Shown here: positions 15,965 to 47,641 of the stretch, one piece after another | Layout: every line of letters begins with the position of its first letter | How positions within the stretch are numbered: the stretch's first letter is position 1 | IMG/VR virus record: IMGVR_UViG_2713896875_000003 | Location: 1-64,000 of that record | DNA: 64,000 nt | Reading direction: 5' to 3' (one strand) | DNA from: an uncultured virus (IMG/VR IMGVR_UViG_2713896875_000003) | Lineage: Duplodnaviria; Heunggongvirae; Uroviricota; Caudoviricetes | The notes under the pieces: generated by a model | What the model was told of the DNA's origin: nothing | What the model saw: the letters and a program-made list of their open reading frames with translations, nothing else | Database searches by the model: none | Position numbers and translations under genes: made by a program

Positions 15965-15999
15965 AAAGGACGAGTGAACAGATCGCTCGTCTTTTTTTT
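15965..15999 (+). terminator. Intrinsic terminator between ssb and virB4
   Basis: AAAGGACGAGTGA...TCGCTCGTCTTT plus long T-run. Confidence 0.7.
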
Positions 16000-16045
16000 G
16001 TACAAGTGTAAAAAAATAGTGATTGCAAAGAAAGGAGTTGATAAG

Positions 16046-25518: not shown

Positions 25519-25678
25519 AGATTCCCTNNTCGTNTATCAGTCACTCGGCGAGTATAACCTAAAACATGTTCTGTCGGAGGTCAAGGGCAAGTGGCATCGG
25601 CAAGCCGACCCTTGNCCTCCGACAGAACATGTTTTCTAGTCGGTTATGCCGAACGACCGATATACGAAAAGGGAATCT
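25519..25678. repeat. Long inverted repeat (Frpo/sso-like hairpin 1)
   Basis: 27-bp inner arms 25561-25587/25609-25635 plus outer arms. Confidence 0.85.
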
Positions 25679-28053: not shown

Positions 28054-28372
28054 AACAAACAGAACAAGGGAATTTTGAAGAGTTTTGTTGGTACTTATAT
28101 GAACCCAAAATTGTTACACCGAAGGAATGTACCAAACATATCATAATAGAGAAATCGTAAAGAAGTTTTCACAGATACGGAAAGAAAAAATACCAGGTGT
28201 ACACCTGGCTGCCAATAAAATAGAAACGCACAGAAAACCTATATAAAATAGGCTTTCTGTGCGTTTTATGATATAATAATGAAGTAGAAAAGTTATGACG
28301 GTGGCTATCCAATCCGAAAGTGAGGTGGTGCGTATGAGTGTACTTCCAAAATCCAAAGAAAGGAGAAGCCTT

Positions 28373-28474
28373 TTGTCTGCATTAGAAACAATTCAGCTGA
28401 TATTAAGCTTTGGCATGTTTACCATTGCGTTGATTAAGTTGATTGTGGAATTGCTAAAAAACGACAAAAAATAA
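28373..28474 (+). CDS. Type I toxin (TxpA/holin-like), 33 aa
   Basis: RBS AAGGAG, TTG start; MSALETIQLILSFGMFTIALIKLIVELLKNDKK; alternative in-frame ATG at 28334. Confidence 0.8.
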   Translation: MSALETIQLILSFGMFTIALIKLIVELLKNDKK

Positions 28475-28585
28475 CCGTTCATTAACTTTGGCGAGTTAAA
28501 CGGTTATTTTTTAACTATAAACAAATGCCACCGTCTTAAACGGTTCTACACTAGAGAGTTGTGTTAGCGCACAGCTCTCTTTTCG
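28466..28585 (-). ncRNA. RatA-like antisense antitoxin RNA
   Basis: Minus-strand extended -10 TGCTATACT near 28590-28600; bidirectional terminator 28466-28512 overlapping the toxin 3' end. Confidence 0.6.
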
Positions 28586-28684
28586 TTTATAGTATAGCAT
28601 ATTCTAAAAAAAAATACTACTAAACGACCAGGGCGCAACGATCTATACAGACGTGCGCCTTTTTTAGTTCGGGAAAAGGGAATG

Positions 28685-29235
28685 AATCCGTTGTTCCGCG
28701 GCGGTGCGGTAGCCCTTGCTCCAAAACCAACGGATTAACTGCTGCACTCAACACGAGTCAATTAAACGTTCTCTACCCATTCGTTCCGATTGGGGAACGT
28801 TTCCTTTTCCTACTCGTTCCTCGCTTAACGGAAAAGTCCATTGACACGAGTTGTTCCTTGTGGGATCACAAGGAAGCGTTCCGCAGTGATTAACATTTCT
28901 AGTAGGTATTTCATACCTACTAGAAAACAAAGTCAAGGGCGTTCCGGTCAAAAATCCCTTTTCTGATGTCAGAACAGTGTCACGCGACCTTTTTCGTTTT
29001 CAGGACGTTCATTTTGCAGTGTGTAACGTGCTGCTCACTGTTTGCTACAGTACCACAGCCAGTCGAAAAAACAAGGGTATATAAACGAGCAAGCTCGCCC
29101 TTGTTTTTTCTTTATGTCTATGGTCCTTCCACGGCACAGCGAGCGACACGAACACACTGGCGAAAATGAACAACCTAAACAAAAACGAAAAAGGGGGTAG
29201 ACTACACCGTTTGACGAAAAGGAATTTTTGACCGT
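28685..29235. repeat. Structured intergenic repeat copy A (contains Frpo-like hairpin 2)
   Basis: 28685-28880 is about 90% identical, ungapped, to 32116-32311; followed by a long fold-back ~28945-29235. Confidence 0.85.
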
Positions 29236-29893: not shown

Positions 29894-30673
29894 ATGGACT
29901 TTCAAAATATACAAACTGTAAAAGAATTGACACACGCACTCAAACAATACAATCAAAATCTAGCAACCACTATTTTTGACGACACACAAGGTTATATCAG
30001 TGTAGCTTTTAGAAAATAAAGCATTGAAAGAAACGGAAAAAACTTCCAGTTTTTGTGTTTCTATCCTAATTATAAAGTAGCCCTTTATCCAGTCGAGACG
30101 TTACTTTCTTACCTTGAAAAGCTACCAGAACAAGCCACCATTGCGATTAAAGACCCAGACGGTAACTATTCGTCTCTTTATCTAACAATTGATGAAACGA
30201 TAGATAAAGGAACTAAATACAAGTGGCTAGTAATTAGCGATAAACTTTCTTATGAGCGCTTTTTCCTAACAAGCACATTGACTGCACAAGAACAAGCACT
30301 TGAAAAAATGCTAAAAGAACTAGAAACCGAGCATGACAACACGGTCGAATATATCCACAATTGGCTATGCAAACAAAATGATGAATCTCTTTTTCAAGGT
30401 ATTCTAAAGGAAGATAGAACCATAAAAGGCTCTGTCACGTATTGCATGGGAAAAGCCCAAGAACAAGCCGAAAAACGACCAAATGCTATGGTAATGGTCA
30501 CAGACGAGGTGGCATTTAGTTGGATAAAGGAATATTTCATACTTGAAAAACTACCCGAAATGAAAGCAATCGGTAAGGTAGTGACGACTGCCAAAAAGAA
30601 ACCGAGCAAAAAAGAAGAGTCTAAACCTCAAAGAAAAGAGGTGGACGAACAAGTAAAATTGTTCGAGTTGTAA
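29894..30673 (+). pseudogene. PcfK-like (AcrIIA9-related) gene with premature stop
   Basis: RBS GAGGG, ATG 29894, TAA 30017-30019, same frame continues; C-terminal IHNWLC...KTIKGSVTYC-like...DEVAFSWIKEYF PcfK-like domain. Confidence 0.7.
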
Positions 30674-32016
30674 TGAGTATTGATAAAAAAATACAAAAAC
30701 CATTAACCCCACCGAAAGCCTTTTTTGATTGGTGTACGTCACAAATACCTACGTATCAATGGAAAAACAAAAAGGAAACAATTCTTGCGAGTTCTCGCAA
30801 GAATTGCCCTACTATCAAAAAGCGATTAACTAAGAGATCGAAGCTCTCTTATCCTACAAAATTTTATTCATTCGGTGTTATCCTTGTCAGTAAAAGGCGA
30901 ATAGAAATTCAATCCCACTGTTATTGGCAAACAATAAAAGACGGTAAAGAAACGCTTATCTATGAACATTCAAATCTTGAACGTTTTTCAAAGGATACCC
31001 ACCTTAAAGCCCATTGCCGTAATGGTTACTGGTATGAGGGGTTGATGTCAAATTATGGTTTTATGAGTAGTGCTTATACAAATACGGTATTTTATCCAAA
31101 TAACTGGCAAGAAAAACTAACCACTGTATCGGAGTTAAAGTACTTACAGTTACCTGAAATAGAGCGCCATGAACTGGCACATATTTATAAATACCGAAAC
31201 GAAATCGAATTTTTACAAAAGATAGGCGCAACAACTCTTGCGAATGAAATCATTTTTGACGACTATCGCAACGTTTTTGGACTGTATTTTCATAAAGCAG
31301 ATATGAGAGTAATTACTAAGAAATGGCTAAAAGCGAATAAGCAAAAATTAAAAACAAGCAATCCAACCTTTCATGAATTCATGTTAGAAAAAACGTTAAA
31401 AGAACGAAATGCGCCTATGATAAACGAAATAGAAAAGTACGTACATTATTCGCAAATCAAGCAATTACCGAAAGAGGTGAATTTAACCAAGTTTCAAAAA
31501 TGGTTTATGCGAAAAGGGGAACGTTTTGACTACTATATGGACTACTTACACATGCTAGAAGAGTTGAACACCCCACTTAATAACGATAGTGTATTGTATC
31601 CAGAAAACTTACAAGTAGCTCACGATAACGCTATGAACACGCTAAACCTTTTGAAAAGTGAGATTGAAGAAAAGCAGTATCAAGAACGGAAAAACCAAAT
31701 TAAAGCGTTAGAAGCTGAAATTGACGACTTGCTTTTTCTCACACCACATTCATTACAAGAAATCATTCAAGAAGGAAGTATTCTACGCCATTGTGTGGGC
31801 AGTCAACATTATATCGAACGACATACACAAGGAAAAACAACGATTGTTTTTATCCGAAGAAAAGAAAAGCCAGATATGCCTTACTTCACATTAGAATATC
31901 GAAATCAACAGGTTATACAAATACAAGGAAAATGTAACCGTCAGGAAGTACCAGAAAAGATAAAACAAGCAGTTGAACGTTGGAAACAAGTCGCTCATAC
32001 AGCCATACCTTCCTAA
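30673..32016 (+). CDS. PcfJ-like protein
   Basis: YYMDYLHM, LYPENLQVAHD, EGSILRHCVG, PYFTLEY motifs. Confidence 0.85.
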   Translation: MSIDKKIQKPLTPPKAFFDWCTSQIPTYQWKNKKETILASSRKNCPTIKKRLTKRSKLSYPTKFYSFGVILVSKRRIEIQSHCYWQTIKDGKETLIYEHSNLERFSKDTHLKAHCRNGYWYEGLMSNYGFMSSAYTNTVFYPNNWQEKLTTVSELKYLQLPEIERHELAHIYKYRNEIEFLQKIGATTLANEIIFDDYRNVFGLYFHKADMRVITKKWLKANKQKLKTSNPTFHEFMLEKTLKERNAPMINEIEKYVHYSQIKQLPKEVNLTKFQKWFMRKGERFDYYMDYLHMLEELNTPLNNDSVLYPENLQVAHDNAMNTLNLLKSEIEEKQYQERKNQIKALEAEIDDLLFLTPHSLQEIIQEGSILRHCVGSQHYIERHTQGKTTIVFIRRKEKPDMPYFTLEYRNQQVIQIQGKCNRQEVPEKIKQAVERWKQVAHTAIPS

Positions 32017-32115
32017 ACAAACGAAAACAAGCGGTAGAGAAAAGAGGTAAAGATTAAACGTTAGGAATGCTAAGAAAAGAGTTTTCTTAGCATTCCTAAC
32101 CGAAATCTAGGACAA

Positions 32116-32620
32116 AATCCATTGTTCCGCGGCGGTGCAGTCGCCCTTGCTCCAAAACCAATGGATTTTCTGCTGCACTCAACACGAGTCAATTAAACGT
32201 TCTATTCCCATTCGTGCCGACTGGGGAACGTTTCCTTTTCCTACTCGTTCCTCGTTTAACGGAAAAGGACATTGACACGAGTTGTTCCTTGTGAGACCAC
32301 AAGGAAGCGTTTCACAGATTAAAGTTTTTTCTGAAGCAGTTTCACTGCTACAGAAAAAAGGCGTTGGTTCTATGGCATTTTTCTGTCACTCGTCCTCTTA
32401 TTGCGGTTATCATTTCTTCAGTGAGCCGGCCTTGTGTACTTGCGAATCATACAACAGCCAGTCGAAAACACAAGGGTAAAATGCACGAGCAAGCTCGCCC
32501 TTGTGTTTTCTTTGTGTCTGATGTCTGTTCTCTGCGCACCCAAAACCTCAAACTCACTGAAGAAATGGATCATAACAGCAAACAAAGAAAGGAGAGGACC
32601 ACAGAAAAATACCGAACCAA
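32116..32620. repeat. Structured intergenic repeat copy B (contains Frpo-like hairpin 3)
   Basis: Paralogue of 28685-29235 with compensatory changes. Confidence 0.85.
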
Positions 32621-32705
32621 CGAAGTTCAAAAGAAGCACCCCTTCCTAAATCTTCAAAAAAAATGAGTTTTGAAAAAAATAAAAAACAGAAAGAGGCGAG
32701 TAAAA

Positions 32706-33434
32706 ATGACTAGACTTGAACAAGCACAAGGAAAATTGCAACGACTAAAAAGAGAAAGCGAAGAAATGCACCACTTAATCAGGGCGGAACATGACCGTAT
32801 CCCTTTTGGACAGCCTAACATTATTGGCCGTGGGGACATTTATAAGAAAGTAAATGGCTATCATGATCGAGCAATTAAATTACTGAAGGAACAAGAAAAA
32901 CAAGAAAAAAGAGTGGAAATGCTGGAAAAGGTAGAAGATTTTAAGGAAAAAAACGAGCTAATTAAAGACGTTCATGTGGTCGGTAAATCAAGTTATGCGA
33001 CGGTTGGCGCAAAAACAAGCGTCAATAACATTGACTACTTTAAAAATGAACTAAAAGAGCTTGAAAAAGCCAACGAGAAAGCAAAGGCTTATAACAAGAC
33101 GAAGCCTGCCATTAAGGCGAGAACCTACGGCGCAGCAATCACGAAACTAAAAAATAAAATTGCGACCCTGGAACAAATGAAAGAAGCGGATGAAAATAAG
33201 GTGATGAGTGAGAAAACAAAAGAACTGATAGAAAGCGGTGCAGTAACACAATGGAAGAAAAAGCCGATATTCTATTTCGTTAAAGGGTTGCGAAAAGTAG
33301 CACTAGAAATTGACGAAAATGGAGATTTCTTCATTTCTAACTATTATCCGGCTTGTACAGATGCAGATAAGGAATTTATTAATAAGTTATTAGATCCTGC
33401 AGCTGAAAGCACAAAAAAAGAAACCTTTTGCTGA
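32706..33434 (+). CDS. Coiled-coil hypothetical protein (IPFGQP motif reminiscent of DUF3560)
   Basis: RBS GAGG, ATG 32706; family call is weak. Confidence 0.65.
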   Translation: MTRLEQAQGKLQRLKRESEEMHHLIRAEHDRIPFGQPNIIGRGDIYKKVNGYHDRAIKLLKEQEKQEKRVEMLEKVEDFKEKNELIKDVHVVGKSSYATVGAKTSVNNIDYFKNELKELEKANEKAKAYNKTKPAIKARTYGAAITKLKNKIATLEQMKEADENKVMSEKTKELIESGAVTQWKKKPIFYFVKGLRKVALEIDENGDFFISNYYPACTDADKEFINKLLDPAAESTKKETFC

Positions 33435-33472
33435 AGACAAAAGATTTCTAGGACGTTAACTATTTATAGTCA
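33413..33472 (-). ncRNA. Candidate antisense sRNA 2
   Basis: Minus-strand TTGAAT-17-TATACT (33507-33479); terminator stem identical to sRNA 1. Confidence 0.5.
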
Positions 33473-33620
33473 TGAATAAGTATAGCGTTCCTTAGAAAAA
33501 TATTCAATGGGTTCCTGCCATAACGATGGAGTTATGGCAAGGATTCATTGCAACTCATAGAATAGAACAATTATCTAACAGTAACGAATTAAAAAAAATA
33601 TTGCTTTTGGAGGAATACAA

Positions 33621-34055
33621 ATGAGAAGATTAAGTAATACGACAATGGCCAACGAAACTCTAAAAAAAGAAGCATGGTATAGAATGATGCTTACCGACCT
33701 ATCAAGTTCTGTCATTGATGAGTTCATGGAAACAGGGAAATGCCATTACACCAGCAATTACTTTCAAGGTGAAAATATTTTAGTCACTGAAGAAATAGAG
33801 GAAATCATAAAGACGGCCGAAAAGAAGTATGGCTTCCTGGTGTACTATGTAACTGAAAATAAAACAGCGGATGGCCAGAGATTTTTATCATTATTCTACG
33901 TTGGACGCGATACTAGTGATTGGCTTTACTGTCACAGGGATTTAGAATCTTATAGGCAATATGTGTATGTAGTTAATACGACGAACCCTGCATTTTCAGA
34001 ATTTGGAATGATTCAATTTGATCCAATACTAGGCAGTCTTTTACGAACTGCATAG
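33621..34055 (+). CDS. Hypothetical protein
   Basis: 144 aa, RBS GGAGG. Confidence 0.7.
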   Translation: MRRLSNTTMANETLKKEAWYRMMLTDLSSSVIDEFMETGKCHYTSNYFQGENILVTEEIEEIIKTAEKKYGFLVYYVTENKTADGQRFLSLFYVGRDTSDWLYCHRDLESYRQYVYVVNTTNPAFSEFGMIQFDPILGSLLRTA

Positions 34056-34153
34056 ATAAAAAAAATATATTTTATGGTATCAGTTGGGCTTTTTGGCCCA
34101 GCTGAAGCCTAACGTAAGGAATTATAAGAAAGGTGGGAAATGAGTATGGAAAT

Positions 34154-34299
34154 ACGGGTACGACACGTTTCCCTATAAATGTATAAACATGAAATGGGAG
34201 AATTTATCCTTCTGGATAAATGATAACGGGTACGACACGTTTCCCTATAAATGTATAAACATGAAATGGGAGAATTTATCCTTCTGGATAAATGATAAC
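34154..34299 (+). repeat. Exact tandem duplication (72-bp period) of the intron 5' end
   Basis: 34154-34225 = 34226-34297. Confidence 0.95.
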
Positions 34300-36949
34300 T
34301 AATAGTTCGATAGTTGGAATGAAAGCCGTCATGTTGGCTGAAACAACTAGTCTGATACTCCTACATGCGTGAAATTTTAACAGAAATTCCAGGTATGAAG
34401 TTAGGTGAAGTCGGCTGAACAATGCCTAAGTGAAATGTACAGTTCATAAGGCAGAGGATAGGTCGGGACGCTATAAACTATCTATGGTGAGAATGTTTCC
34501 AGCGAGAAACTGACGAACTTGCGAATGTACGGATCTATAGTCCGACGTTTATCGAAAGAAAACGGCTTACGTTATGTAAGGAATATTACCGAAGAGTAAG
34601 AGTCTGTGTTATGAAATTCGGGATAGTTAACAATGAAACTATAAATATTCAGGTCCACAGTAAGCACCTAAGGGTAGATATGCAAAGCTAGAACTATTGG
34701 AACGTGGAAAGCGAGAAACACTTATGCCAAACGACTGTTATCGGAGTGTTGAATATAAGATTTTACAAATCGAAATTTCTTAATTCTCGTGAGAGTAGGG
34801 GCACAGTACTGATGAAGCGTGTAATGAACGTGGAGGGATAGCCCCAAGACTTGTTCTTTGAAAAATGAATACTGCTAAATGAAACTCACAGGGTCTGGTA
34901 AGAGGATGGGACTATTTAGAATAGGAGAAGTAACCATCGGTGAGTACTGAATTAAGATATTATGAGTATTACAATATGCAAGAAACTTTTGATTGGTTAT
35001 ATCAAAGAAGTTTAGAGAATCGAACAAAGGGAATCAATTTGTTCGATATTATTATATCAGAACGAAATATATTGTTAGCCTACAGAATAATTAAATCAAA
35101 CACGGGCTCAAAAACAGCTGGTGTAGATAATCAAACAATCTCAGATTATAAAATGAAGAATAAGGCTCAGTTTATTCGAGAAATTCGAGAGAGTTTAGTT
35201 GATTACAAGCCAGAAATGGTTAGAAGGGTTGAAATTCCCAAACCCAATGGAAAAACAAGGCCTTTAGGAATACCCACAATGAGAGATAGGTTGATTCAAC
35301 AAATGTTTAAACAAGTGCTTGAACCTATTTGTGAAGCACAATTTTACAAACACTCTTATGGATTTCGACAAAACCGCTCGACAGAACATGCAATTGCTAG
35401 GTGTAACTTTGTTGCCTACGCTTGTAAATGTCATTATGTGGTTGATGTAGATATAGAAGGATTCTTTGACAATGTTAGTCATTCAAAAATGATTAAACAA
35501 CTGTATACCATTGGTGTAAAGGACAGACGTGTACTGGCGATTATCTCTAAAATGCTAAAAGCTCCCATTAAAGGAATTGGCTCTCTAGATAAAGGAACAC
35601 CACAAGGTGCGATTTTATCTCCCTTATTATCTAATGTAGTATTAAATGATTTAGATTGGTGGATTGCTAATCAATGGGAAACGTTTCAAAGCAGATACCC
35701 TTATAAAGATAATGCGTATATGTATAGTGCTCTAAAGAAAACCAAATTAAAAGAAATGCATATCGTTAGATATGCGGACGACTTCAAGATTTTTACAAAT
35801 ACTCCAAAATCAGCAATCAAAATATTTCATGCTGTTAAAGGATATTTGAGAAATCAACTTTCACTAGATATTTCAAAAGAAAAATCAAAAATAACGAATT
35901 TGAGGAAACGATACTCAGAATTTCTAGGCTTTGAGATAAAAGTTGAAAAGCAAAGAAAAGGGAAATATGTTTCTATCTCCAGAGTATCTAGAAAAGCCAA
36001 AAAGAAAATAAAGAAAGACGTCCGTCAAAGAGTAAAACGAATTCAACGTTATCCGACATTTGAAAATATCAAAAACTACAATTTATTTGTCAAAGGAATT
36101 CAAAATTATTATCAAAAAGCAACTAGAGTAAATCTAGACTTTTCAGATATATATTACTCTTGTTTGCCAGCCCTATTCAATCGTTTAAAATTTATTGGGA
36201 AATATGAAATACCTAGAAGTCCACCTTTGGTGTACAAGAAAATTTACAGTTTGAACCATCGAACTTTTCGAGTAAATGGAGAGTACCTTTATCCAATTGA
36301 ATGTATTAAATGGGATAAAGCATGGCCATTTAGATCAACAGTAAATAATTACACCGAACAAGGAAGACTAGAGCGTATCAAAATGTTAAAACCAAAAATA
36401 GGCTCAGAATTGATAAAAATGGGTCAAAAGTATTCAGAAAATCAATCTATTGAATTTCTGGATAATAAACTCTCTCGTTACTCTATGCAAAATGGTAAGT
36501 GTGCTGTTACAGGAGAATTTCTAACCTCTGAGATAGCACACGGACACCATATAGTACCTAAGAAGCAAGGAGGAACTGATGATTATCAAAATATAGTCAT
36601 AGTTCACGAGTGGATTCATAAATTAATCCATGCCAAAACAAAGCAAACGATTGAAGAATATTTCAATGTGCTTCAGTTAAATGAAAAGCAATTGAAGAAA
36701 CTCAACAAATATCGAAAAGAATGTAATTTAGCAGAAATTCATTTGAAGTAAAGAAGAAGTTGGAACGCCGTATGCGGTGAAAGTTGCATGTACGGTGTGG
36801 AGCAGGGGAAAAGCCGGAGAGCGAACTATTATCATTAGCTAAGGTAATAGACAATCAAAGGCTTACCTATTGCTATGGGGGAAAAGCCGGAGAGCGAACT
36901 ATTATCATTAGCTAAGGTAATAGACAATCAAAGGCTTACCTATTGCTAT
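34158..36949 (+). mobile_element. Group II intron (probably bacterial class B)
   Basis: 5' end GTACGACACGTTT; domain V ACGCCGTATGCGGTGAAAGTTGCATGTACGGTGT near 36765-36798; 3' end CTTACCTATTGCTAT; internal RT ORF. Confidence 0.92.
34940..36751 (+). CDS. ltrA: Intron-encoded reverse transcriptase/maturase/HNH endonuclease
   Basis: RPLGIP, SYGFR, GTPQG, RYADD; C-terminal HHIVPKKQGG...HKLIH HNH. Confidence 0.95.
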   Translation: MSTELRYYEYYNMQETFDWLYQRSLENRTKGINLFDIIISERNILLAYRIIKSNTGSKTAGVDNQTISDYKMKNKAQFIREIRESLVDYKPEMVRRVEIPKPNGKTRPLGIPTMRDRLIQQMFKQVLEPICEAQFYKHSYGFRQNRSTEHAIARCNFVAYACKCHYVVDVDIEGFFDNVSHSKMIKQLYTIGVKDRRVLAIISKMLKAPIKGIGSLDKGTPQGAILSPLLSNVVLNDLDWWIANQWETFQSRYPYKDNAYMYSALKKTKLKEMHIVRYADDFKIFTNTPKSAIKIFHAVKGYLRNQLSLDISKEKSKITNLRKRYSEFLGFEIKVEKQRKGKYVSISRVSRKAKKKIKKDVRQRVKRIQRYPTFENIKNYNLFVKGIQNYYQKATRVNLDFSDIYYSCLPALFNRLKFIGKYEIPRSPPLVYKKIYSLNHRTFRVNGEYLYPIECIKWDKAWPFRSTVNNYTEQGRLERIKMLKPKIGSELIKMGQKYSENQSIEFLDNKLSRYSMQNGKCAVTGEFLTSEIAHGHHIVPKKQGGTDDYQNIVIVHEWIHKLIHAKTKQTIEEYFNVLQLNEKQLKKLNKYRKECNLAEIHLK

Positions 36950-36950
36950 G
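36805..36950 (+). repeat. Exact tandem duplication (73 bp) of the intron 3' end
   Basis: 36805-36877 = 36878-36950. Confidence 0.95.
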
Positions 36951-37083
36951 CGTGATTTACGGCTTAAATAACGGACGTATCCAAACCATAGAACAGAACG
37001 CCGAGCAAGGGCAAATTGTCGCAAAATATGACCGATTATATTTTGCTAATTCTATTCAATCGATTGTTATTCCACCAAAATAA
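36950..37083 (+). pseudogene. 3' exon: C-terminal fragment of a tail-associated CHAP amidase gene
   Basis: Reads (G)VIYGLNNGRIQTIEQNAEQGQIV...IPPK-stop; EQN CHAP motif; sits just before bppU-like gene; 5' part absent. Confidence 0.7.
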
Positions 37084-37101
37084 CGAAAGGAGGATTTTTC
37101 A

Positions 37102-37983
37102 ATGGTTAAATGGCAAGCAACGCTAAGTACAACTGAACCTTACAATTACATTGGGATTCAGAATGTACGACAAGGAAATCGAAACACAGAAGTCTTAGAA
37201 GCCATACTAGTTGAAAATGCTTTGCCACTTGATTTAACAGGTTGCGAAGTTTTTTTTGAATCGGTTATTGATAATAAATATCCGATTCAACGTTCAGCAA
37301 AAATTGTGAATGCCAAAAAAGGGATTATTCAGTATACCTTTGATGAATATTCTATGCAGTCGTTACACAGACAAGAAGCATATTTCAGTATTCATAAAGG
37401 TGATAACCTGATTGGTGCAACGCAAAACTTTTCTTACTTTGTAGTGAATGCTGCTTCGAAAACAGAAGGTGAAATGGGTTCTTATTGGCAGTCCATTGAA
37501 GATTTAATCGCGGACATGAACGCTTTTATCAACGAAAATAAGGGTGATTTTACTGATTGGATGAATGCTAGAAAAGAAGAGTTCGAAGCGTGGCGAGATG
37601 CGCAAAAAACAGATTTCACTTCATGGTTCGAATCAATCAAAGATATTTTAAAAACGATTGATCCTGGCGGTACGATGTTAGCCGAGCTAATGGATGCACG
37701 TGTAGACATTCAAGGAGTGCGCCATAATTCAATTTCTGAACGTTTATTGGCAGATATGGAATATTTGTATCAGAAATTAGAGAAACGCTTATATACGTTA
37801 GAATATGGCGAAATAAGTGACTTGATTATTTTACAAGATGATGCTTTTTCACTGAATCATGAAACAGAAATTGTTGGAACAGTTGATTATCCTGCGATCG
37901 ATGGGGCATTGGTTATCGCAACAGTTGATGATACAAAACAGAACGCTTATGTGTTTGAAAAAGTGGGTGAAATAAGTGGTTAA
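37102..37983 (+). CDS. Baseplate upper protein BppU-like
   Basis: VRQGNRNTE...DLTG...KGIIQYTF N-terminal domain; ELMDAR motif. Confidence 0.75.
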   Translation: MVKWQATLSTTEPYNYIGIQNVRQGNRNTEVLEAILVENALPLDLTGCEVFFESVIDNKYPIQRSAKIVNAKKGIIQYTFDEYSMQSLHRQEAYFSIHKGDNLIGATQNFSYFVVNAASKTEGEMGSYWQSIEDLIADMNAFINENKGDFTDWMNARKEEFEAWRDAQKTDFTSWFESIKDILKTIDPGGTMLAELMDARVDIQGVRHNSISERLLADMEYLYQKLEKRLYTLEYGEISDLIILQDDAFSLNHETEIVGTVDYPAIDGALVIATVDDTKQNAYVFEKVGEISG

Positions 37984-38572
37984 AGCAAAACGAATGATGG
38001 AAACCGATGAAAATGGCGTGGAACGTCAGTTTTATCCTATTACACATGCATCCGCTGTTCGAGGATTAGAAAAAATTATTGCGGGTCAATCAAAAGTATT
38101 ATCTGTTAATGGATATACTGGGGCAGTAATTATCACTAAAGCAGATCTAGGCTTAGAAAATGCTCTGACAGAACTTCCTTATGCGACAGAAGAAACAGAC
38201 GGTATTATCACTGCTGAAATGTTTCAACGGTTGTCAAATGGCGAGGGAGGCGTGTACATTCTTCCAATCGCTACCGCAGATGAACTGGGCGGAATAAAGG
38301 TTGGCCAACTGTTAGAAATTACAGAAGACGGAACGTTGTCTGCGGTAAAGCAAACAGATCAAAATTTCACCACTGAACTAAAATCGAAACTGGAAGAGTT
38401 GAAAGGTTATACTGCTGGAGCGAATATTTCTATTTCAGAAGATGGTGTTATTTCAGCAACTGGTGGTGGCGATGGCGGCGGAGTGAATCAACAATATGTT
38501 GACCAAAAAGTTCAAGAAGCCATTGACAGAATACCTGATATTACGTTTGAGAGAGTAGGGGAAGTTGAATGA
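37976..38572 (+). CDS. Tail-fibre-like protein
   Basis: VLSVNGYTG, LPIATADELGGIKVG fibre motifs. Confidence 0.7.
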   Translation: MVKAKRMMETDENGVERQFYPITHASAVRGLEKIIAGQSKVLSVNGYTGAVIITKADLGLENALTELPYATEETDGIITAEMFQRLSNGEGGVYILPIATADELGGIKVGQLLEITEDGTLSAVKQTDQNFTTELKSKLEELKGYTAGANISISEDGVISATGGGDGGGVNQQYVDQKVQEAIDRIPDITFERVGEVE

Positions 38573-38856
38573 CAGATATTGTTAAAGTAAAACAAGGAGG
38601 AACACAGGTATTTCCTCAAACACATTGGAATGCTGTGGAAGGGAAACCAGAAGTATTGAAAGGTGAAAAGGGAGACCCAGGTCCACAAGGTCCAAAAGGA
38701 GATAAAGGAGACGTTGGTCCGCAAGGTCCAGCAGGGCAAAATGCAACAACGACAGACGTTGCAACCTCAATGAAAAATGGCTTGATGTCTAAAGAAGATA
38801 AAACAAAGCTAGATGGATTGCCAGCAATTACATTTGAAAAGGTAGGAGAAGTGTAA
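38569..38856 (+). CDS. Short collagen-like fibre protein
   Basis: GXY run (GEKGDPGPQGPKGDKG); GLMSKEDKTKLDG. Confidence 0.75.
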   Translation: MTDIVKVKQGGTQVFPQTHWNAVEGKPEVLKGEKGDPGPQGPKGDKGDVGPQGPAGQNATTTDVATSMKNGLMSKEDKTKLDGLPAITFEKVGEV

Positions 38857-39326
38857 TGACAACAGATATTGTTCAATTAAAAGAAAAAGGAAAACCAGTC
38901 TATCTTAAAACACATACTGCCGCAATTGATGGGCTTGAATCGTATCCAACTAAAGTAGATACGGATAAAGCGTATTTAAAGGTACCGACAATAGATGAGT
39001 TATGGTCTGGTGGTTGGTTTATGAATGGTTCGCAAACAGTAACACCTAAGAAAAAACTTAGTGAGTGTGCAAATGGGTGGTTACTAGTTTTTACAAATGC
39101 GGAAAACGATGCTTCAACAAAAACAGAATTCCAATATTTATTTATACACAAACGACATGTAAAAAAATATAGCGCAACAGGTATTGTTTTTCCAACAGCA
39201 AATTACAATGGCACAAAAACAGGAGTGAAGTATCTTTACGTTAGAGATACTAATATAAAAGGGAATGATTTGAATGGTAACGCTGCGAACAAATTCAAAA
39301 TCTTGATAGAAATTTATGAATGGTAG
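38856..39326 (+). CDS. Putative receptor-binding fibre tip protein
   Basis: LWSGGWFM...TPKKKLSECANGWLLVF domain; last gene of the fibre series. Confidence 0.6.
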   Translation: MTTDIVQLKEKGKPVYLKTHTAAIDGLESYPTKVDTDKAYLKVPTIDELWSGGWFMNGSQTVTPKKKLSECANGWLLVFTNAENDASTKTEFQYLFIHKRHVKKYSATGIVFPTANYNGTKTGVKYLYVRDTNIKGNDLNGNAANKFKILIEIYEW

Positions 39327-39339
39327 GAGGAAAGAGAAC

Positions 39340-39660
39340 ATGAAAATTTGGATTGTAAACAAAGAAGGATTTTTAGAGGGCTATTCGTTAATCCAACAAC
39401 CTGATTTATTGGAGATTGAAGTAGAAAAAGAACCAACAGATTTCTTTAATTATCGCTGGGACGGAACAAGCTTAATATACGATCCTGACAATGTGCCAGA
39501 ACCAGAGCCAACACCACCTACGGAATTAGAACTTTTACAAAAGCAAAATGCGGAATTAATGAAGCAAGTTTCTCAGCAGAATCAAGTTATTCAACAAACA
39601 CAAAGAATGACTGCCGAATTGATGAAACAAGTCGCTGAACTTACGAAAGGAGCGGAATAA
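39340..39660 (+). CDS. Phage tail-associated hypothetical protein (XkdW-like position)
   Basis: RBS AGGAGG; PEPEPTPPTELELLQ then coiled coil. Confidence 0.6.
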   Translation: MKIWIVNKEGFLEGYSLIQQPDLLEIEVEKEPTDFFNYRWDGTSLIYDPDNVPEPEPTPPTELELLQKQNAELMKQVSQQNQVIQQTQRMTAELMKQVAELTKGAE

Positions 39661-39661
39661 G

Positions 39662-39817
39662 ATGAAAACGAATGCTTTTCCAGGTTTCGATAATATTAAA
39701 CAGTTGTATGATTGGAATTGTTATACAAAACAAGATTTAGTAGATTACGTGAATATGAATTGCTTAACAAAAGAAGAATACACAAAAATTTGTGGAGAAC
39801 CGTTTAGCGAAAGCTAA
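39662..39817 (+). CDS. XkdX-like protein, 51 aa
   Basis: Not in ORF track; IKQLYDWNCYTK...LTKEEYTKICGE. Confidence 0.75.
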   Translation: MKTNAFPGFDNIKQLYDWNCYTKQDLVDYVNMNCLTKEEYTKICGEPFSES

Positions 39818-39851
39818 GCGGTTTTTCTTGTAAGTAGAAAGTAGGTGCAGG

Positions 39852-40073
39852 ATGAACTTAACAGTAGAACAATGGTTAGCAGTGATTACATTCTTAGGCG
39901 GAATTATTTTCGCATTAATGAAATTTTATCATGTCTTTTCTCAATTAGAAGATAGCATGAAAGAACTAAAGGAAGCTGTTGAACGTTTAAATAACCATGA
40001 AATACGCATTAGCCGATTGGAAGAGCAAAATAAAACCCTCTTTAGAGGGATTGGAGGAAATAAAAATGATTAA
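39852..40073 (+). CDS. Small membrane lysis-cassette protein (XhlA-like)
   Basis: N-terminal TM, HEIRISRLEE. Confidence 0.6.
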   Translation: MNLTVEQWLAVITFLGGIIFALMKFYHVFSQLEDSMKELKEAVERLNNHEIRISRLEEQNKTLFRGIGGNKND

Positions 40074-40299
40074 TTGGAAATCAAGAATAAAGAACAAACA
40101 ATTTTGGCTTTCGATTATTCCAGCAGTTCTATTATTAATTCAAGTAGTAGCAGTTCCTTTTGGATATAAATTTCAAATTGAAATGATTAATAAGCAACTG
40201 TTAGATGTTGTTAATGCATTATTTGTTGTGCTAACTATTCTAGGTATTGTGACAGATCCCACAACACCTGGATTATCAGATAGGAAAGGAGATAAATAA
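40066..40299 (+). CDS. Holin (phiLC3 family)
   Basis: MINWKSRIKNKQFW...GIVTDPTTPGLSD. Confidence 0.9.
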   Translation: MINWKSRIKNKQFWLSIIPAVLLLIQVVAVPFGYKFQIEMINKQLLDVVNALFVVLTILGIVTDPTTPGLSDRKGDK

Positions 40300-41541
40300 A
40301 TGAAAAAGAAACTATTGGCAACGTTACTGGTAGTCTTATTTTTTGTATCACCAATTAGCACATTTGCTGCAAAAGGAGACCAAGGCGTTGATTTGTCTAT
40401 TTGGAATGGGTATCAAGCAACATTTGGTTATGCACATGATAAATTCTCAATTTCACAAATTGGTGGGCAAAACAACTATGGGATTTATGATCAAGTTACT
40501 TATTCTAGTCAAGTAGCTAGTACGATTGCTCAAGGTAAACGAGCGCATACGTATGTATGGTGGCAAAACGTCCTTACCTACGAAAATGCAAAGCAAGTAT
40601 TAGATTACTTTTTACCTAAAGTTCAAACACCAAAGGGATCAATTGTCGCCTTAGATGCGGAAGACGGCGTTCAATCGACGGATGTAACGCTATGGGCGTT
40701 AGACTATATCAAAGAGGCTGGATATACACCGATGCTTTACGGATACAAAGGGTATCTTACTTCATCTTATGATTTATCACGAATTGCAAAGAAGTATCAA
40801 TTATGGATGGCAGAATATCCAGATTATGAAGTGACACCTTATCCAAATTACAATTATTTTCCTTCATTTGAAAATATCGGTATTTTTCAGTTCACGTCAA
40901 CCTACGTTGCAGGAGGGCTAGATGGTAACATTGATTTAACAGGTATTACTGATAATGGTTATACAAAGAATAACCAACCAGCAACAAACACACCAGCTAT
41001 TGAGGAAGGTAAAGAAGTAGAAAATACGCCAAGTTCCGATGTTAAAGTGGGCGACACTGTTAAAGTGAAATTTAGTGTTGATGCTTGGGCAACTGGCGAA
41101 GCTATTCCGCAATGGGTAAAAGGAAACAGCTATAAAGTGCAAGAAGTAACTGAGAGCAGAGTATTGCTTGAAGGTATCTTGTCATGGATCAGCAAAGGCG
41201 ATATTGAATTATTGCCAGATGCAGCAACAGTTCCTGATAAGCAACCAGAAGCAACACACGTAGTACAATACGGCGAAACATTATCAAGTATTGCTTACCA
41301 ATACGGAACAGATTATCAAACGTTGGCGGCATTAAATGGATTGGCTAATCCAAATCTAATTTATCCTGGCCAAGTTTTGAAAGTAAATGGATCAGCAGTA
41401 AGCAACGTTTACACAGTTCAATACGGTGATAATTTATCAAGTATTGCAGCCAAACTCGGCACTACTTATCAAGCCTTAGCTGCATTAAACGGATTAGCAA
41501 ATCCTAACTTGATTTATCCTGGTCAAACATTGAATTATTAA
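40300..41541 (+). CDS. Endolysin, GH25 muramidase with two LysM domains and a signal peptide
   Basis: GVDLS, ALDAED, QFTS...LDGN; two LysM repeats (NPNLIYPGQ). Confidence 0.92.
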
Positions 41542-41550
41542 GAAATAAGC

Positions 41551-41590
41551 AAATCCCTACTTCTCACTGTGAGAGGTAGGGATTTTTTAT
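41551..41590 (+). terminator. Terminator after endolysin
   Basis: AAATCCCTACTTCTCAC..GTGAGAGGTAGGGATTT plus T-run. Confidence 0.8.
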
Positions 41591-41599
41591 TTATTCGGT

Positions 41600-41870
41600 A
41601 TATTTTACATGTCTATTCGCTTGCCTTTTTTTATTTTTTGATGTAGATTTTATCTTGTTGTTATAGTCTATTTTGCTAATTTGAATTAAAATGATATTAC
41701 GCAAACCCTTGTGAGTTCTAGTCTGTCTAAATATGGTGTTGTAGAAAAATTACACCGTGAAACTAAATAATTTAGTTAGACAGAGCCTAGAATCCTTGCT
41801 TTATAAGGGTTCTAGGCTCTTTTTTTGTTGTTAGGAATTTACTGATTTAGTTATTGATGTAGATTTGCTA
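41600..41870. other. attP region; core probably TTACACCGTGAAACTAAATAA (41750-41770)
   Basis: Between lysin and int 3' end; core translates LHRETK-stop (L33 C-terminus); GATGTAGATTT repeats near 41640 and 41856. Confidence 0.75.
41783..41826. terminator. Terminator downstream of att core, convergent with int
   Basis: GAGCCTAGAATCCTT...AAGGGTTCTAGGCTC plus T-run. Confidence 0.8.
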
Positions 41871-41872
41871 TT

Positions 41873-43054
41873 TTAAAAATTTACATAGCTACTGAAAGCA
41901 TCTGTTGCTTCTTTAGTAACTTCATCAGAAACATGAGTGTAAGTATCCATAGTTATTTGTAAAGAAGAATGTCCTAAACGTTCTTGGATTATTTTAGACC
42001 TAACATTATCTGATTCGAATAATAATGTTGCGTGTGTATGCCGAAAACCATGACAACCAATAGAATGTAAGTTAGCTTTTTCTGCCAATCTTTTGGAACG
42101 TTGGTAAATGTCTTGACTTCGGAACATGGTACCATCAATTTTTGTAAAAATAAGTTGTGTTTTAAACCCACCTTTTTTCATTAAAGCCTCACGCTGTCTA
42201 AGTTTCCATTTTTTTAAGATATAAGCAGTCTTGTTATCAAAAGAAATTTTACGAATAGAATTGGAAGTTTTAGGATCGTTTATAGTCAATCCATTTGTAC
42301 TGATAGCAGTAGTTTTATTTATATTAACTACCTGCTTTTTTAAATCAATATCATTCCAATTCAATGCTAAAGCTTCACCAACACGTATACCAGTAAAAGA
42401 AAGTAAGCGAAAAATAGCACAGTCTAAGTCAGCATAGTATTTTAGAACTAAACTTTCTTCTTTGGCTTGATTGGCAATGCTATCAGCTGTATTTAAGAAA
42501 TGTTCCAGTTCGTCTTTTGTATAGAACTTTCTTTTTGTATTCTTTTCTATTTTCTTTAGCGAACTAGGCTTAGTTATTTTCTTAAATGGGTTTGAATCTA
42601 TTATTTCTAAACCAACAGCATAGTCACAAACACGAGAAGCATAACTCAAAAGTACTTTTCCCATTTCATTCTTTTTATACCATTCATTAACAGATTTTTG
42701 CACGGTCTTGACTGTTAAACGCTCAAGTCGCATTTTCCCGAATGTGGGTAAAATGTGTTTTTTCATACGTCGTTCAGTAGCTATAAATGTGGATTCCCTA
42801 ACTGTTTTTTTGTATTCGTCCAACCACATATAATAAACTTCTTCAAAAGTGGTTAAATGAGTATGCTCGTTAGCTAGATTTCCATTATCAAAATCTAATT
42901 TTTTTTGATTAAGCTTGAGCTGTGCTTCTTTTTTTGTATTACAGTTTCTGATAGTGACATTAATTTGTTTTCCAGTTAAATAATCTACGCCTAAATAGGC
43001 AGTTACTTTCCAGTATTTTTTCCCTTTTTTTGTATATTGTTTAAAAGTTGCCAT
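41873..43054 (-). CDS. int: Tyrosine integrase
   Basis: TGIRVGEALAL, PKT, HGFRHTHA, RLGH, YTH catalytic motifs. Confidence 0.96.
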   Translation of the reverse strand: MATFKQYTKKGKKYWKVTAYLGVDYLTGKQINVTIRNCNTKKEAQLKLNQKKLDFDNGNLANEHTHLTTFEEVYYMWLDEYKKTVRESTFIATERRMKKHILPTFGKMRLERLTVKTVQKSVNEWYKKNEMGKVLLSYASRVCDYAVGLEIIDSNPFKKITKPSSLKKIEKNTKRKFYTKDELEHFLNTADSIANQAKEESLVLKYYADLDCAIFRLLSFTGIRVGEALALNWNDIDLKKQVVNINKTTAISTNGLTINDPKTSNSIRKISFDNKTAYILKKWKLRQREALMKKGGFKTQLIFTKIDGTMFRSQDIYQRSKRLAEKANLHSIGCHGFRHTHATLLFESDNVRSKIIQERLGHSSLQITMDTYTHVSDEVTKEATDAFSSYVNF

Positions 43055-43239
43055 TGCTTATCCTTTCCACTTGGGCAAGCGAATAGAAGGAATGACAAAT
43101 TTCTAGCACCTCCTTATTAAATTTTAAAGCCCCTAGCATGAATCGAACACGCTTAGACTCGCCAGAGAGGGGGATTTATAGAAGAAATTATGCTATAATT
43201 GGCCTATGAAGAGGTCATCCAATTGTAAAGGGGTTTTCT

Positions 43240-43887
43240 ATGATGGTTATTGAATACTTAAATATTTTTGCAGTACTTATACAATCTACTGCTACAGGAT
43301 ATTTTACCTATTTCTTAATTAAGAGTAATGACTTGTTAGTTTTATCAAATGCACAAAAAGAAGAAAAAATAGCAGTAGTATCAATATTGTCAGCCATTAA
43401 TTTAGCTGTATTTTTGTTAGCTCAAAGTATCATTTCTTACAATTTGTCGAATATGGAACCGTACATCCAACAAATTGCGGCTGCAATACTATCATTTGTA
43501 TTAGTATTAGTAATTGGGTTGTTCGTTTTACCTAAAGCAATTTTATCTTTTTTTTCTTGGATAAATAAACTTAGAAAAAAGAAGGGTAAGCTAGAATTTA
43601 CACATAGAGCAATTAGAGATACTGCGTTGGATAATTCTTATCATCAATACATCTATGTTTTTGATTTTGCAAACAACTATATCGCTTCTGGCTATTTAAA
43701 TGTTTATCAATATAATACGGATGAATACAATGAGTTACTATTATATGCACCAAAAGAACCTGAAAAAAGACGAACTGTCGAAGCAGTTGAAATTCTATTT
43801 AAAAATAATGATATAAATATTTTGATTGATTATGAGAAAAAAGTGAAATTGTATATAGTGCCTATGGACGAGGCTGTGGGCGAGTAG
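43240..43887 (+). CDS. Accessory three-TM membrane protein (moron-like)
   Basis: Own extended -10 TGCTATAAT near 43190; opposite strand to neighbours. Confidence 0.75.
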   Translation: MMVIEYLNIFAVLIQSTATGYFTYFLIKSNDLLVLSNAQKEEKIAVVSILSAINLAVFLLAQSIISYNLSNMEPYIQQIAAAILSFVLVLVIGLFVLPKAILSFFSWINKLRKKKGKLEFTHRAIRDTALDNSYHQYIYVFDFANNYIASGYLNVYQYNTDEYNELLLYAPKEPEKRRTVEAVEILFKNNDINILIDYEKKVKLYIVPMDEAVGE

Positions 43888-45988: not shown

Positions 45989-46263
45989 AAAGTTCTAGAT
46001 TCGCTTTTTAGCCACGCGATGGCACCCTTGGCTAGATTCCTAGAAGCCCAGTGTTCTTTTGTTTGAATCACAAACAACGAATCACTTGAATCGATTTCTG
46101 TTTTTAATTTATCTCGAATTTCAGATGCACTTAAAGATGAATCTACTAACCAGAATGAATCAAATCTTTTTGAATAAGCTCCAAGTGATTTAATTTTTTC
46201 ATTCAGAGCATCATAATCTTGATTTGGTTTTTTCAAATCATAGGTAATAGCGTAAACACTCAT
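45985..46263 (-). CDS. Stand-alone Cas2/VapD-like small protein
   Basis: YAITYDL first strand, LG, S-x-W pattern; 92 aa; RBS AAGGTGG. Confidence 0.6.
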   Translation of the reverse strand: MSVYAITYDLKKPNQDYDALNEKIKSLGAYSKRFDSFWLVDSSLSASEIRDKLKTEIDSSDSLFVIQTKEHWASRNLAKGAIAWLKSESRTF

Positions 46264-47014: not shown

Positions 47015-47407
47015 ATGAATGTATTCGACGTAATAGGAATAGTCGCAATTCCAGTAGCTATCTTGTGTTTTCATAATTGGATAATTGGTGAGCGATTAAG
47101 TGAAGCTGAAAATCGAATAAATAGTTTAACCATTCAACAAATGAACTCACGACAAATATTTAAAGATAGTAGGACAGGCGCTTTGTTACACCAAATGAAA
47201 GGAGAAAAAACTATGTTAACAGCTAATGAAGCTTTTTTAGTACGTGAAGCAGTACGAGAAAAGATTGAAACGTTAAGAGATGCAGTACGTCACGAAAGTG
47301 CAAAGCATCCGACAATGCAAGACCTCCGCACGCTAAAGCATTTTCAAGCAGAACTAGAGCGTTACGAAGCTGCTTATCAAAAAATGCTCAATGAAGTGGG
47401 GTGTTAG
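47015..47407 (+). CDS. Hypothetical protein (possible fusion of two small genes)
   Basis: Internal RBS AAGGAG plus in-frame ATG near 47213. Confidence 0.55.
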   Translation: MNVFDVIGIVAIPVAILCFHNWIIGERLSEAENRINSLTIQQMNSRQIFKDSRTGALLHQMKGEKTMLTANEAFLVREAVREKIETLRDAVRHESAKHPTMQDLRTLKHFQAELERYEAAYQKMLNEVGC

Positions 47408-47410
47408 TTG

Positions 47411-47641
47411 ATGGATGAAAATAAAAAGTATGTAGCATTTGTTGAGGATGGAATAGTTTTAAAAAGAGGTAGCGATATTTGCATACTTAGAGACACTACA
47501 AGTACAAATGCATTTATGCTTTCTGAAAAGGTAGCCAATCATTTAAGAACTAGTGGTGATAAGTATGAAATTTATCAGTTGGTTCCAATCAATAAAGGGG
47601 ATATGGAGGTATTAGGTGATGGCGAAAAAATGGACTCCTGA
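47411..47641 (+). CDS. Hypothetical phage protein
   Basis: ORF in early operon. Confidence 0.55.
   Translation: MDENKKYVAFVEDGIVLKRGSDICILRDTTSTNAFMLSEKVANHLRTSGDKYEIYQLVPINKGDMEVLGDGEKMDS

Follow-up and report, generated by a model that had tools for sequence, protein, structure and literature searches.

Does the group II intron in the uncultured-virus record IMGVR_UViG_2713896875_000003 physically join a conjugative plasmid to a temperate phage, or do the two lie on either side of it only because an assembly placed them there? The stretch of DNA that we analysed (the window) comprises positions 1–64,000 of this 72,393-nt IMG/VR record, and the last 8.4 kb of the record were also analysed. 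IMG/VR classes the record as a provirus, that is, as excised from a longer contig, a class that says nothing about the type of sample. From left to right, it consists of a pheromone-type Enterococcus faecalis plasmid (to 34157), a group II intron, and a complete temperate phage. An earlier interpretation made from the letters alone (the sequence-only reading) had proposed that recombination between two intron copies fused a phage circle to the plasmid. Our analysis confirms the observation and supports the interpretation in part, but its headline is most likely an assembly artefact: we estimate a probability of about 0.7 that plasmid and phage are two separate circles, bridged in the record by scaffolding over a collapsed intron.

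The two joins have the marks of contig ends

The features at the bridge are as follows.

34140–34157, plus strand: plasmid 5′ exon, the first 18 nt (MSMEIR) of a 113-codon open reading frame (ORF) of unknown function, with an intact allele in NZ_CP124917.1
34154–34225/34226–34297, plus strand: exact tandem duplication, 2 x 72 nt, each copy consisting of ACGG and the first 68 nt of the intron
34230–36876, plus strand: group II intron in its single-copy form, 2,647 nt, 5′ GTACG, 3′ ...CTAT (Rfam RF02004, RF00029)
34940–36751, plus strand: intron-encoded protein, 603 amino acids (aa), reverse transcriptase with a C-terminal HNH endonuclease (Pfam)
36805–36877/36878–36950, plus strand: exact tandem duplication, 2 x 73 nt, each copy consisting of the last 72 nt of the intron and G
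36950–37083, plus strand: phage 3′ exon, the last 44 codons and stop of a tail-associated lysin (CHAP) gene, from comparison with phage SEsuP-1

The two exons come from different genes, as the sequence-only reading had seen: the upstream exon (34140–34157) is the start of a plasmid ORF, and the downstream exon (36950–37083) is the end of a phage tail CHAP gene. The plasmid ORF begins with ATGAGTATGGAAATACGG, the intron entering after ...TATGGAAATACGG. As written in the record, the intron spans 34158–36949, lengthened by the two duplications. These were also described correctly before, and are the only exact tandem duplications with a period of 40–199 nt in the 72,393-nt record.

The duplications end where the plasmid and phage contexts stop matching. 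The two 5′ exons, ..AAATACGG in the plasmid and ..CACACGG in the phage, share precisely the suffix ACGG; the two 3′ exons, GAATT.. in the plasmid and GCGTG.. in the phage, share only the prefix G, the next bases being different. Compared side by side, with a slash for the insertion point, the sites read AAATACGG/GAATT in the plasmid and CACACGG/GCGTG in the phage. Such borders are expected where copies of a repeat collapse into one node, entered by two paths and left by two, and such duplications would remain if contigs with end overlaps of about k-1 were abutted without trimming. The duplications are scaffold joints, one between plasmid contig and intron contig at 34154–34297 and the other between intron contig and phage contig at 36805–36950. 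The reservation attached to the sequence-only reading, that they look like overlap scaffolding across a collapsed multicopy intron, is thus borne out by the duplication borders and by an N-separated counterpart in a second record. We also considered a biological origin of the duplications, which is ruled out by the inclusion of 4 nt and 1 nt of exon, by the differing lengths in two records of the same phage, and by the N between the copies.

Elsewhere, the intron is found without duplications. In runs X2 and X3, it occurs once and unduplicated, as 34229–36877, on long contigs (101 kb in X2 and X3's 38 kb, respectively), and the phage tail gene there is intron-less. In another assembly, a 2,649-nt contig with a member of the intron-protein cluster consists of nothing but the intron, which fits a collapsed repeat.

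A second record of the same phage

Only one other IMG/VR record, IMGVR_UViG_2671180668_000006 (49,052 nt; hereafter G001), matches the phage 5′ exon–intron 31-mer. Between integrase and tail-gene 5′ exon, its phage is the one found here (99.99–100% identity over 30 kb), and at the same two places it has overlaps of 75 and 74 nt, here with a single N between the copies. An N between overlapping copies means that contig ends were laid side by side, and it establishes the duplications as scaffold joints. On the reverse strand of G001 (30279–36400), the phage 5′ exon is joined via the intron to the 3′ exon of a type IV secretion system (T4SS) lysozyme/CHAP gene that belongs to a different element, a MOBP-type conjugative plasmid with a MobL relaxase, a DUF3991/Toprim protein, a single-stranded DNA-binding protein (SSB), and a nuclease encoded downstream. 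The exons at such joints are therefore mismatched in both (2/2) of the IMG/VR records with the intron, and the 'provirus' stored as G001 is a phage–plasmid composite.

From 41873 on, G001 is 100% identical to the window, and it ends exactly at the integrase gene. Such an end is expected of an integrated prophage, in which case a real join at the intron would mean that a plasmid had recombined into a chromosomal prophage.

Two further details of G001 were noted. About 200 nt of the window (47286–47487) are absent from its otherwise identical phage, where the alignment breaks. At another N joint (reverse strand, ~46050–46146), the left contig overlaps the right by ~98 nt and then continues for 17 adapter-like nt, presumably sequencing-adapter read-through at a contig end; this joint suggests a short-insert library and contigs abutted despite their overlap.

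Both intron insertions are real

Both the plasmid site and the phage site are known in empty form. Intron-less plasmids such as NZ_CP124917.1 have the 113-codon coding sequence annotated, with the empty site ATGAGTATGGAAATACGG/GAATTAACC. The intron-less tail gene of SEsuP-1 matches the phage context (...TATGGTCACACGG/GCGTGATTTACGG) and reads ...CATATGGTCACACGG/GCGTGATTTACGG at the insertion point, so that the insertion lies within the YGHTG codons; the CHAP domain of this uninterrupted homologue covers residues 798–903. The phage site is also empty in the X2 and X3 contigs, and the T4SS hydrolase site of the plasmid in G001 is empty in NZ_CP138650.1 (CATATGGTCATACCG/GTGTGGTAGC). In addition, the homologue of the plasmid ORF in the 240-kb conjugative plasmid LR962543.1 is interrupted at the corresponding position by a related intron of 95% identity (junction ATGAGTATGGAAATATGG/GTAAGAC), with a flank that is 86% identical. 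The plasmid 3′ exon was not found in the next 12 kb of LR962543.1.

The plasmid and phage sites have in common TATGG (-13 to -9) and A.ACGG/G (-6 to +1), in different reading frames, and the sites share the pattern TATGG..AYACKG/G. The pattern TATGGNNAYACKGG occurs once in the window, at 34145 (the plasmid site), against 0.01 occurrences expected, a comparison that is partly circular in that the motif was drawn from this site too. Further 5′ exons were found in reads and contigs (..TATGGGCATACTG in X2 and ..TATGGACATACTG in X21), as were two further 3′ exons in the raw reads of X21 (454 and 1,091 reads), all in CHAP-type contexts.

Because empty sites exist and a 95% relative occupies the same plasmid site in LR962543.1, both insertions, in the plasmid and in the phage, are real. 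A chance chimera at the plasmid junction was considered separately and is ruled out by the likeness of the sites (TATGG, A.ACGG/G) and by the relative in LR962543.1. At its 5′ end the intron has no fewer than two junctions, one with the plasmid and one with the phage, and at its 3′ end no fewer than two contexts; the source, judged from these junctions, must have contained at least two full copies of the intron, as had been claimed.

The phage is in circular order

The phage features in the window are as follows.

37102–41541, plus strand: baseplate and lysis module, with a BppU-type baseplate protein, small ORFs, holin, and endolysin (Pfam, NCBIfam; 97% identical to SEsuP-1)
39997–40299: holin (NCBIfam holin_phiLC3)
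40300–41541: endolysin (Pfam Glyco_hydro_25 and LysM)
41542–41872: intact phage attachment site (attP) region, 331 nt, with the lysin terminator (~41550–41585), a 161-nt phage-specific spacer, and the core (~41750–41798)
41873–43054, minus strand: tyrosine integrase (Pfam Phage_integrase, Phage_int_SAM_3, Arm-DNA-bind_4)
43055–64000, plus strand: rest of the phage in the window, with repressor region, replication genes, terminase, portal, prohead protease, and the start of the capsid gene

The phage runs from the lysin through attP to the integrase with no host DNA between them and is opened inside the tail gene, which agrees with the circular order described in the sequence-only reading. Past the window, it continues through tail genes to the tail-gene 5′ exon, which ends at record position 72364 with ...CATATGGTCACACGG and is followed by the intron start GTACGACACG... 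(junction 72364/72365). Of this intron copy, 29 nt follow; the record closes there with the stop codon of an ORF that extends into the intron. The reciprocal junction that the sequence-only reading suggested looking for was therefore found as far as the tail-gene 5′ exon and intron are concerned; the plasmid 3′ exon is not in the record. Without the intron, the phage is 35,415 nt long; the intron brings it to 38,062 nt.

The attachment site was also recognized correctly. From 41750, the core reads TTACACCGTGAAACTAAATAA (LHRETK-stop), followed by a hairpin, and its start copies the last 21 nt of a small host gene, which we take to be rpmG (ribosomal protein L33) from its C-terminus. Upstream of 41750, runs X2 and X21 have host sequence in the same reading frame (...AAATATTGCCCACGTGAAAGAAAAGTTACT); outside the present record, ...TGCCCACGTGAAAGAAAAGTTACT is found directly ahead of the core, and in run X1 the sequence diverges after 41798. 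The core was placed at ~41750–41798 because host sequence precedes 41750 in X2 and X21 and because X1 diverges after 41798. The 3′ end of rpmG is reportedly also an integration site of streptococcal integrative and conjugative elements.

The phage resembles temperate Enterococcus siphoviruses of the SEsuP-1/phiFL3 type. Its tail-end, baseplate, and lysis genes are 97% identical to those of SEsuP-1, and its endolysin is 84% identical to that of phiFL3A/B. Unlike SEsuP-1, in which the site is empty, it has an intron in the tail-lysin gene. The baseplate protein matches Pfam BppU_N, and the replication genes encode a SNF2-type helicase, an exonuclease, and a P4-type primase.

Weighing an artefact against a cointegrate

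How could two separate circles have given this record? The source sample would contain at least two identical intron copies, one after codon 6 of the small ORF on a pheromone-responsive plasmid and the other in a temperate phage, within the tail-lysin gene at the CHAP codons (YGHTG); most of this phage would be in its circular attP form. Assembly of short reads would collapse the copies into one 2.65-kb contig bounded by ACGG and G. The phage contig would be the circle opened at the intron, so that the phage 5′ exon, leading into the intron, comes last in it. A scaffolder using each contig once would then lay down the plasmid, intron, and phage contigs in a row, and their untrimmed end overlaps of ~72 nt would become the two tandem duplications. 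Because such a scaffolder cannot close the circle, its product would run from plasmid through intron to phage and stop at the phage 5′ exon, as the record does. We favor scaffolding in part because two mismatched joins in two records are likelier to come from a scaffolder than from two independent recombinations that became fixed, and because the phage's own exons fit each other in frame. Joined in silico, they give an open frame of 931 aa whose last 60 residues are those of the SEsuP-1 protein; the fusion of plasmid and phage exons translates only to MSMEIRA-stop. The record also resembles known chimeric scaffolds built via collapsed multi-copy repeats: the repeat exceeds the library insert in length, an exact duplication of contig-end size marks each of its borders, these borders lie where the flanks diverge, and the sister record has an N between the copies. 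It differs from them in that the repeat is a self-splicing intron common to phage and plasmid, so that the chimera mimics a plausible recombination product, and in that the overlaps at the two joints differ by one base.

Several points weigh against this explanation. The one-base difference (72 versus 73 nt, and 75 versus 74 nt in G001) is not explained by a single k-mer size, and the type of assembler and scaffolder is inferred, as is the presence of the phage in free rather than plasmid-joined form. Among the contig pieces listed for four runs (636 further pieces were not listed), none spans either joint, and none of those listed skips the 72 or 73 nt there. There is no joint signature through lysin, attP, and integrase, and the lack of a joint at the att core implies that the source had few or no attL and attR forms. 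Scaffolding therefore needs a phage that was mostly free and circular or replicating, if the source was an isolate, or else a mixed sample; a cointegrate needs neither. Finally, two separate replicons and a cointegrate share the same four junctions, and junction content cannot discriminate between them. Only linkage across the 2.65 kb can do so; with a scaffold joint on either side of the intron, the record contains no such linkage.

A real cointegrate, which we consider unlikely, would have arisen by homologous recombination between intron copies (2.65 kb of identity) that put the circular phage into the plasmid, in the order plasmid 5′ exon, intron, phage, intron, plasmid 3′ exon; the assembly would still have collapsed the copies, hence the duplications. 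It accords with two real intron copies that are identical over the whole collapsed contig, with no joint inside the intron, and with the presence in the record of three of its four junctions (plasmid 5′ exon–intron, intron–phage 3′ exon, and phage 5′ exon–intron). It would also explain, with no extra assumption, an intact attP without a contig break at the core, if the phage was kept in the plasmid and not at rpmG, and G001 would be a second phage–plasmid juxtaposition at the same intron. However, the flanks are not linked across the intron by any sequence, both joins being scaffold joints, and the fourth junction (intron–plasmid 3′ exon) lies outside the trimmed record. The exact 31-mer of the plasmid 5′ exon and intron was found in 0 records of viral_contigs, metagenome_contigs, and genome_contigs, and PLSDB has no plasmid in which this intron, at >=99% identity, adjoins this gene. 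Moreover, the tail gene would be severed from its last 44 codons, leaving the phage defective until it recombined out, and G001, if real as well, would require a second independent rare event in a phage that is apparently integrated. It is similarly doubtful that the intron copies served as portable homology by which the phage, its attP and integrase still intact, was kept and moved by conjugation and could leave through reverse recombination, with G001 as a second such event. The arrangement is like cointegrates mediated by insertion sequences or introns, or the formation of Hfr (high-frequency recombination) strains, in that two replicons in one cell would share 2.65 kb of identical mobile DNA and the order is as expected; unlike in those cases, physical linkage is not shown here. 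The proposal of a plasmid::phage cointegrate bearing a transfer origin (oriT) is thus not established, as nothing in the record links the flanks across the 2.6-kb intron, and it is likewise not refuted.

Quite improbable, in our view, is that the attP order had another source and was combined with a chimeric scaffold, the sample being a mixed culture, an enrichment, or a metagenome, or the phage a tandem or multi-copy prophage whose attL and attR had been pruned. Run X1 has some features of this kind. It was the best match in a search of runs with words from 33600–37400, in which no run contained all words (X1, 0.89, highly fragmented), and its 145,350 short contigs, none above 2,823 nt, leave no gap among the 30 bins of 33000–43500; the matches are of both 99+% and 95–99%, which suggests a mixture. 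X1 also has loose ends before 41750 (the attB/attL side) and after 41798 (the host-right side), beside contigs that continue as attP. However, X1 is not known to be the source, and a tandem prophage should leave a branch or joint signature at the att core, where none is seen. The depths in X1 are sums over many short contigs and were not taken as copy numbers. In X1, the phage 5′ exon was found before 34154, and X21 has multi-copy contexts of the intron. Taken together, the comparisons with these runs weigh against neither two separate circles nor a cointegrate.

No published phage–plasmid cointegrate formed via copies of a group II intron, and no published account of this intron in tail genes of Enterococcus phages, was found in a literature search that was mostly at the level of listings. 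In PMC8765060, the intron is only a marker of a plasmid lineage and not the cause of the cointegrates of that plasmid.

The intron and its relatives

In kind, the intron is, by its sequence features, an ordinary ORF-containing bacterial group II intron. Rfam RF02004 matches the catalytic core D1–D4 at 34294–34477 with 118.8 bits (gathering threshold 34.5), and RF00029 matches domains V and VI at 36763–36876 with 59.4 bits (gathering threshold 40). The ORF at 34940–36751, which lies inside domain IV, matches Pfam RVT_1 (3.3e-37) and HNH (4.4e-06); no Pfam match to the maturase (GIIM) domain was found in it at E<=1e-4. The exact protein sequence is present on 9 other contigs, and the named members of its cluster are annotated as group II intron reverse transcriptase/maturase. 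Group II introns generally begin with GUGYG and end with AY. The present intron begins with GTACG, with A instead of G at position 3, and ends with ...GCTAT.

Within the first 900 nt of the intron, only CTGTGT (intron nt 375) pairs all six bases, G-U pairs counted, with ACACGG, ATACGG, and ATATGG (the last from LR962543.1); it has one mismatch with the ATACTG sites of X2 and X21. CTGTGT is only a candidate for exon-binding site 1 (EBS1), and candidates for EBS2 are ambiguous. Near-identical copies of the intron occur in several distinct contexts (the plasmid, the phage, the G001 plasmid, X2/X3, and X21), which points to recent mobility.

Mobile group II introns of the Ll.LtrB type, which encode ltrA, occur in conjugative elements of Lactococcus and Enterococcus. 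The present intron is like them in its ORF with reverse transcriptase and HNH domains, its presence on conjugative plasmids of Firmicutes, and its precise, sequence-defined insertion at sites that are also known empty. It differs in sequence, introns annotated with ltrA on E. faecalis plasmids being only 73–77% identical to it at the DNA level, in its 5′ end (GTACG, not GTGCG), and in its sites: instead of a relaxase gene, it occupies the His-motif codons of CHAP domains, in phage tail lysins as well as in T4SS hydrolases, and a look-alike site in a small plasmid ORF.

Relatives of the intron protein were found at five IMG/VR loci. One of these is G001 and one is a fragment; the remaining three encode 59%-identical proteins in introns at unrelated sites (..AAAATCGTTATTT/GYGCG) and are uninformative for this case. 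The exact 27-mer of the intron 3′ end was found only in G001 among viral_contigs, with 0 matches in genome_contigs and 0 in metagenome_contigs.

Two relatives have unusual structures. In LR962543.1 (~191300–192850), the 95% relative has an internal deletion of 182 nt and stops at the codons for the reverse transcriptase YADD motif (..TATGCGGACGAC), where a second, different group II intron begins (Rfam RF01999, 112.7 bits), an arrangement that, from its sequence, looks like twintron-like nesting. A near search for phages with this intron gave only a 128-nt fragment in Enterococcus phage VEsP-1 (MZ333456.2, 16917–17044), which is 100% identical to the intron 5′ end and has GG in front. It lies ~190 nt upstream of the usual tail-gene site and splits the gene into a 'tail protein' and a 'putative peptidase'; it could be a remnant of the intron or the result of an assembly collapse.

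The plasmid segment

1–34157, plus strand: plasmid segment, pheromone-responsive conjugative plasmid (pCF10/rep9-type) of E. faecalis (plasmid matches, Pfam, NCBIfam)

Positions 30000–34153 match complete E. faecalis plasmids with 97% identity over 100% of their length; an example, and the best match, is NZ_CP124917.1, named p1_EfsC17_rep9b. The identity ends at 34158, 18 nt into the 113-codon ORF. The segment encodes a PrgA-type surface exclusion protein (SEC10/PgrA domain, NCBIfam), an aggregation substance (NCBIfam Agg_substance equivalog, 2837 bits against a cut-off of 1500), a CHAP/glucosaminidase hydrolase, a coupling protein, SSBs, a nuclease, and PcfJ, along with TcpC-like and TcpF-like T4SS proteins. 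The Pfam matches are TpcC, CHAP, TraG-D_C, and PcfJ. Genes for aggregation substance and surface exclusion adjoining a T4SS identify the segment, as far as gene content goes, as a pheromone plasmid of the pCF10/pAD1 type.

The record is of draft quality, with four ambiguous bases. All four (NN, N, N) are in the plasmid part, clustered in ~90 nt at 25528–25615 beside an inverted repeat (..ctgtcggaggtcaagggca.. / ..cctccgacagaacatg..); the consensus is of low quality at this spot, which may lie near the transfer origin region. A TcpF/PrgJ-like T4SS ATPase is split over two neighboring ORFs at 15974–18538 (profile positions 228–442 and 490–803); either this essential transfer gene has a frameshift or a stop there, or the sequence is in error. 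Small RNAs of the plasmid part, at 28262–28887 and 32169–32318, comprise two copies of Enterococcus-1 RNA (157 and 155 bits), in a 202-nt direct repeat that is 92% identical, a RatA-type antitoxin RNA, and an rli28-like RNA; the plasmid part of G001 matches the RatA region with 87.5% identity. The plasmid's own CHAP/glucosaminidase gene (10593–11864) has no intron, and the motif TATGGNNAYACKGG is absent from it.

Implications

For the use of draft assemblies, these results call for caution: a multi-copy intron common to phages and plasmids would give rise to convincing phage–plasmid hybrids. Virus catalogues appear to store such hybrids as 'proviruses', of 72 kb in the present case, and both IMG/VR records with this intron seem to be affected.

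Were the unlikely cointegrate real after all, a CHAP-homing intron would be a recurrent bridge between phages and plasmids in E. faecalis, and a self-splicing intron would let a conjugative plasmid ferry a whole temperate phage between cells. More modest but solid is what the insertion sites indicate. This intron lineage inserts at the catalytic-His codons of genes for CHAP peptidoglycan hydrolases, in phage tails and in the T4SS operons of plasmids, and is also found at a look-alike site in a small plasmid ORF. It thereby puts 2.6 kb of identical DNA on the phages and plasmids of one host.

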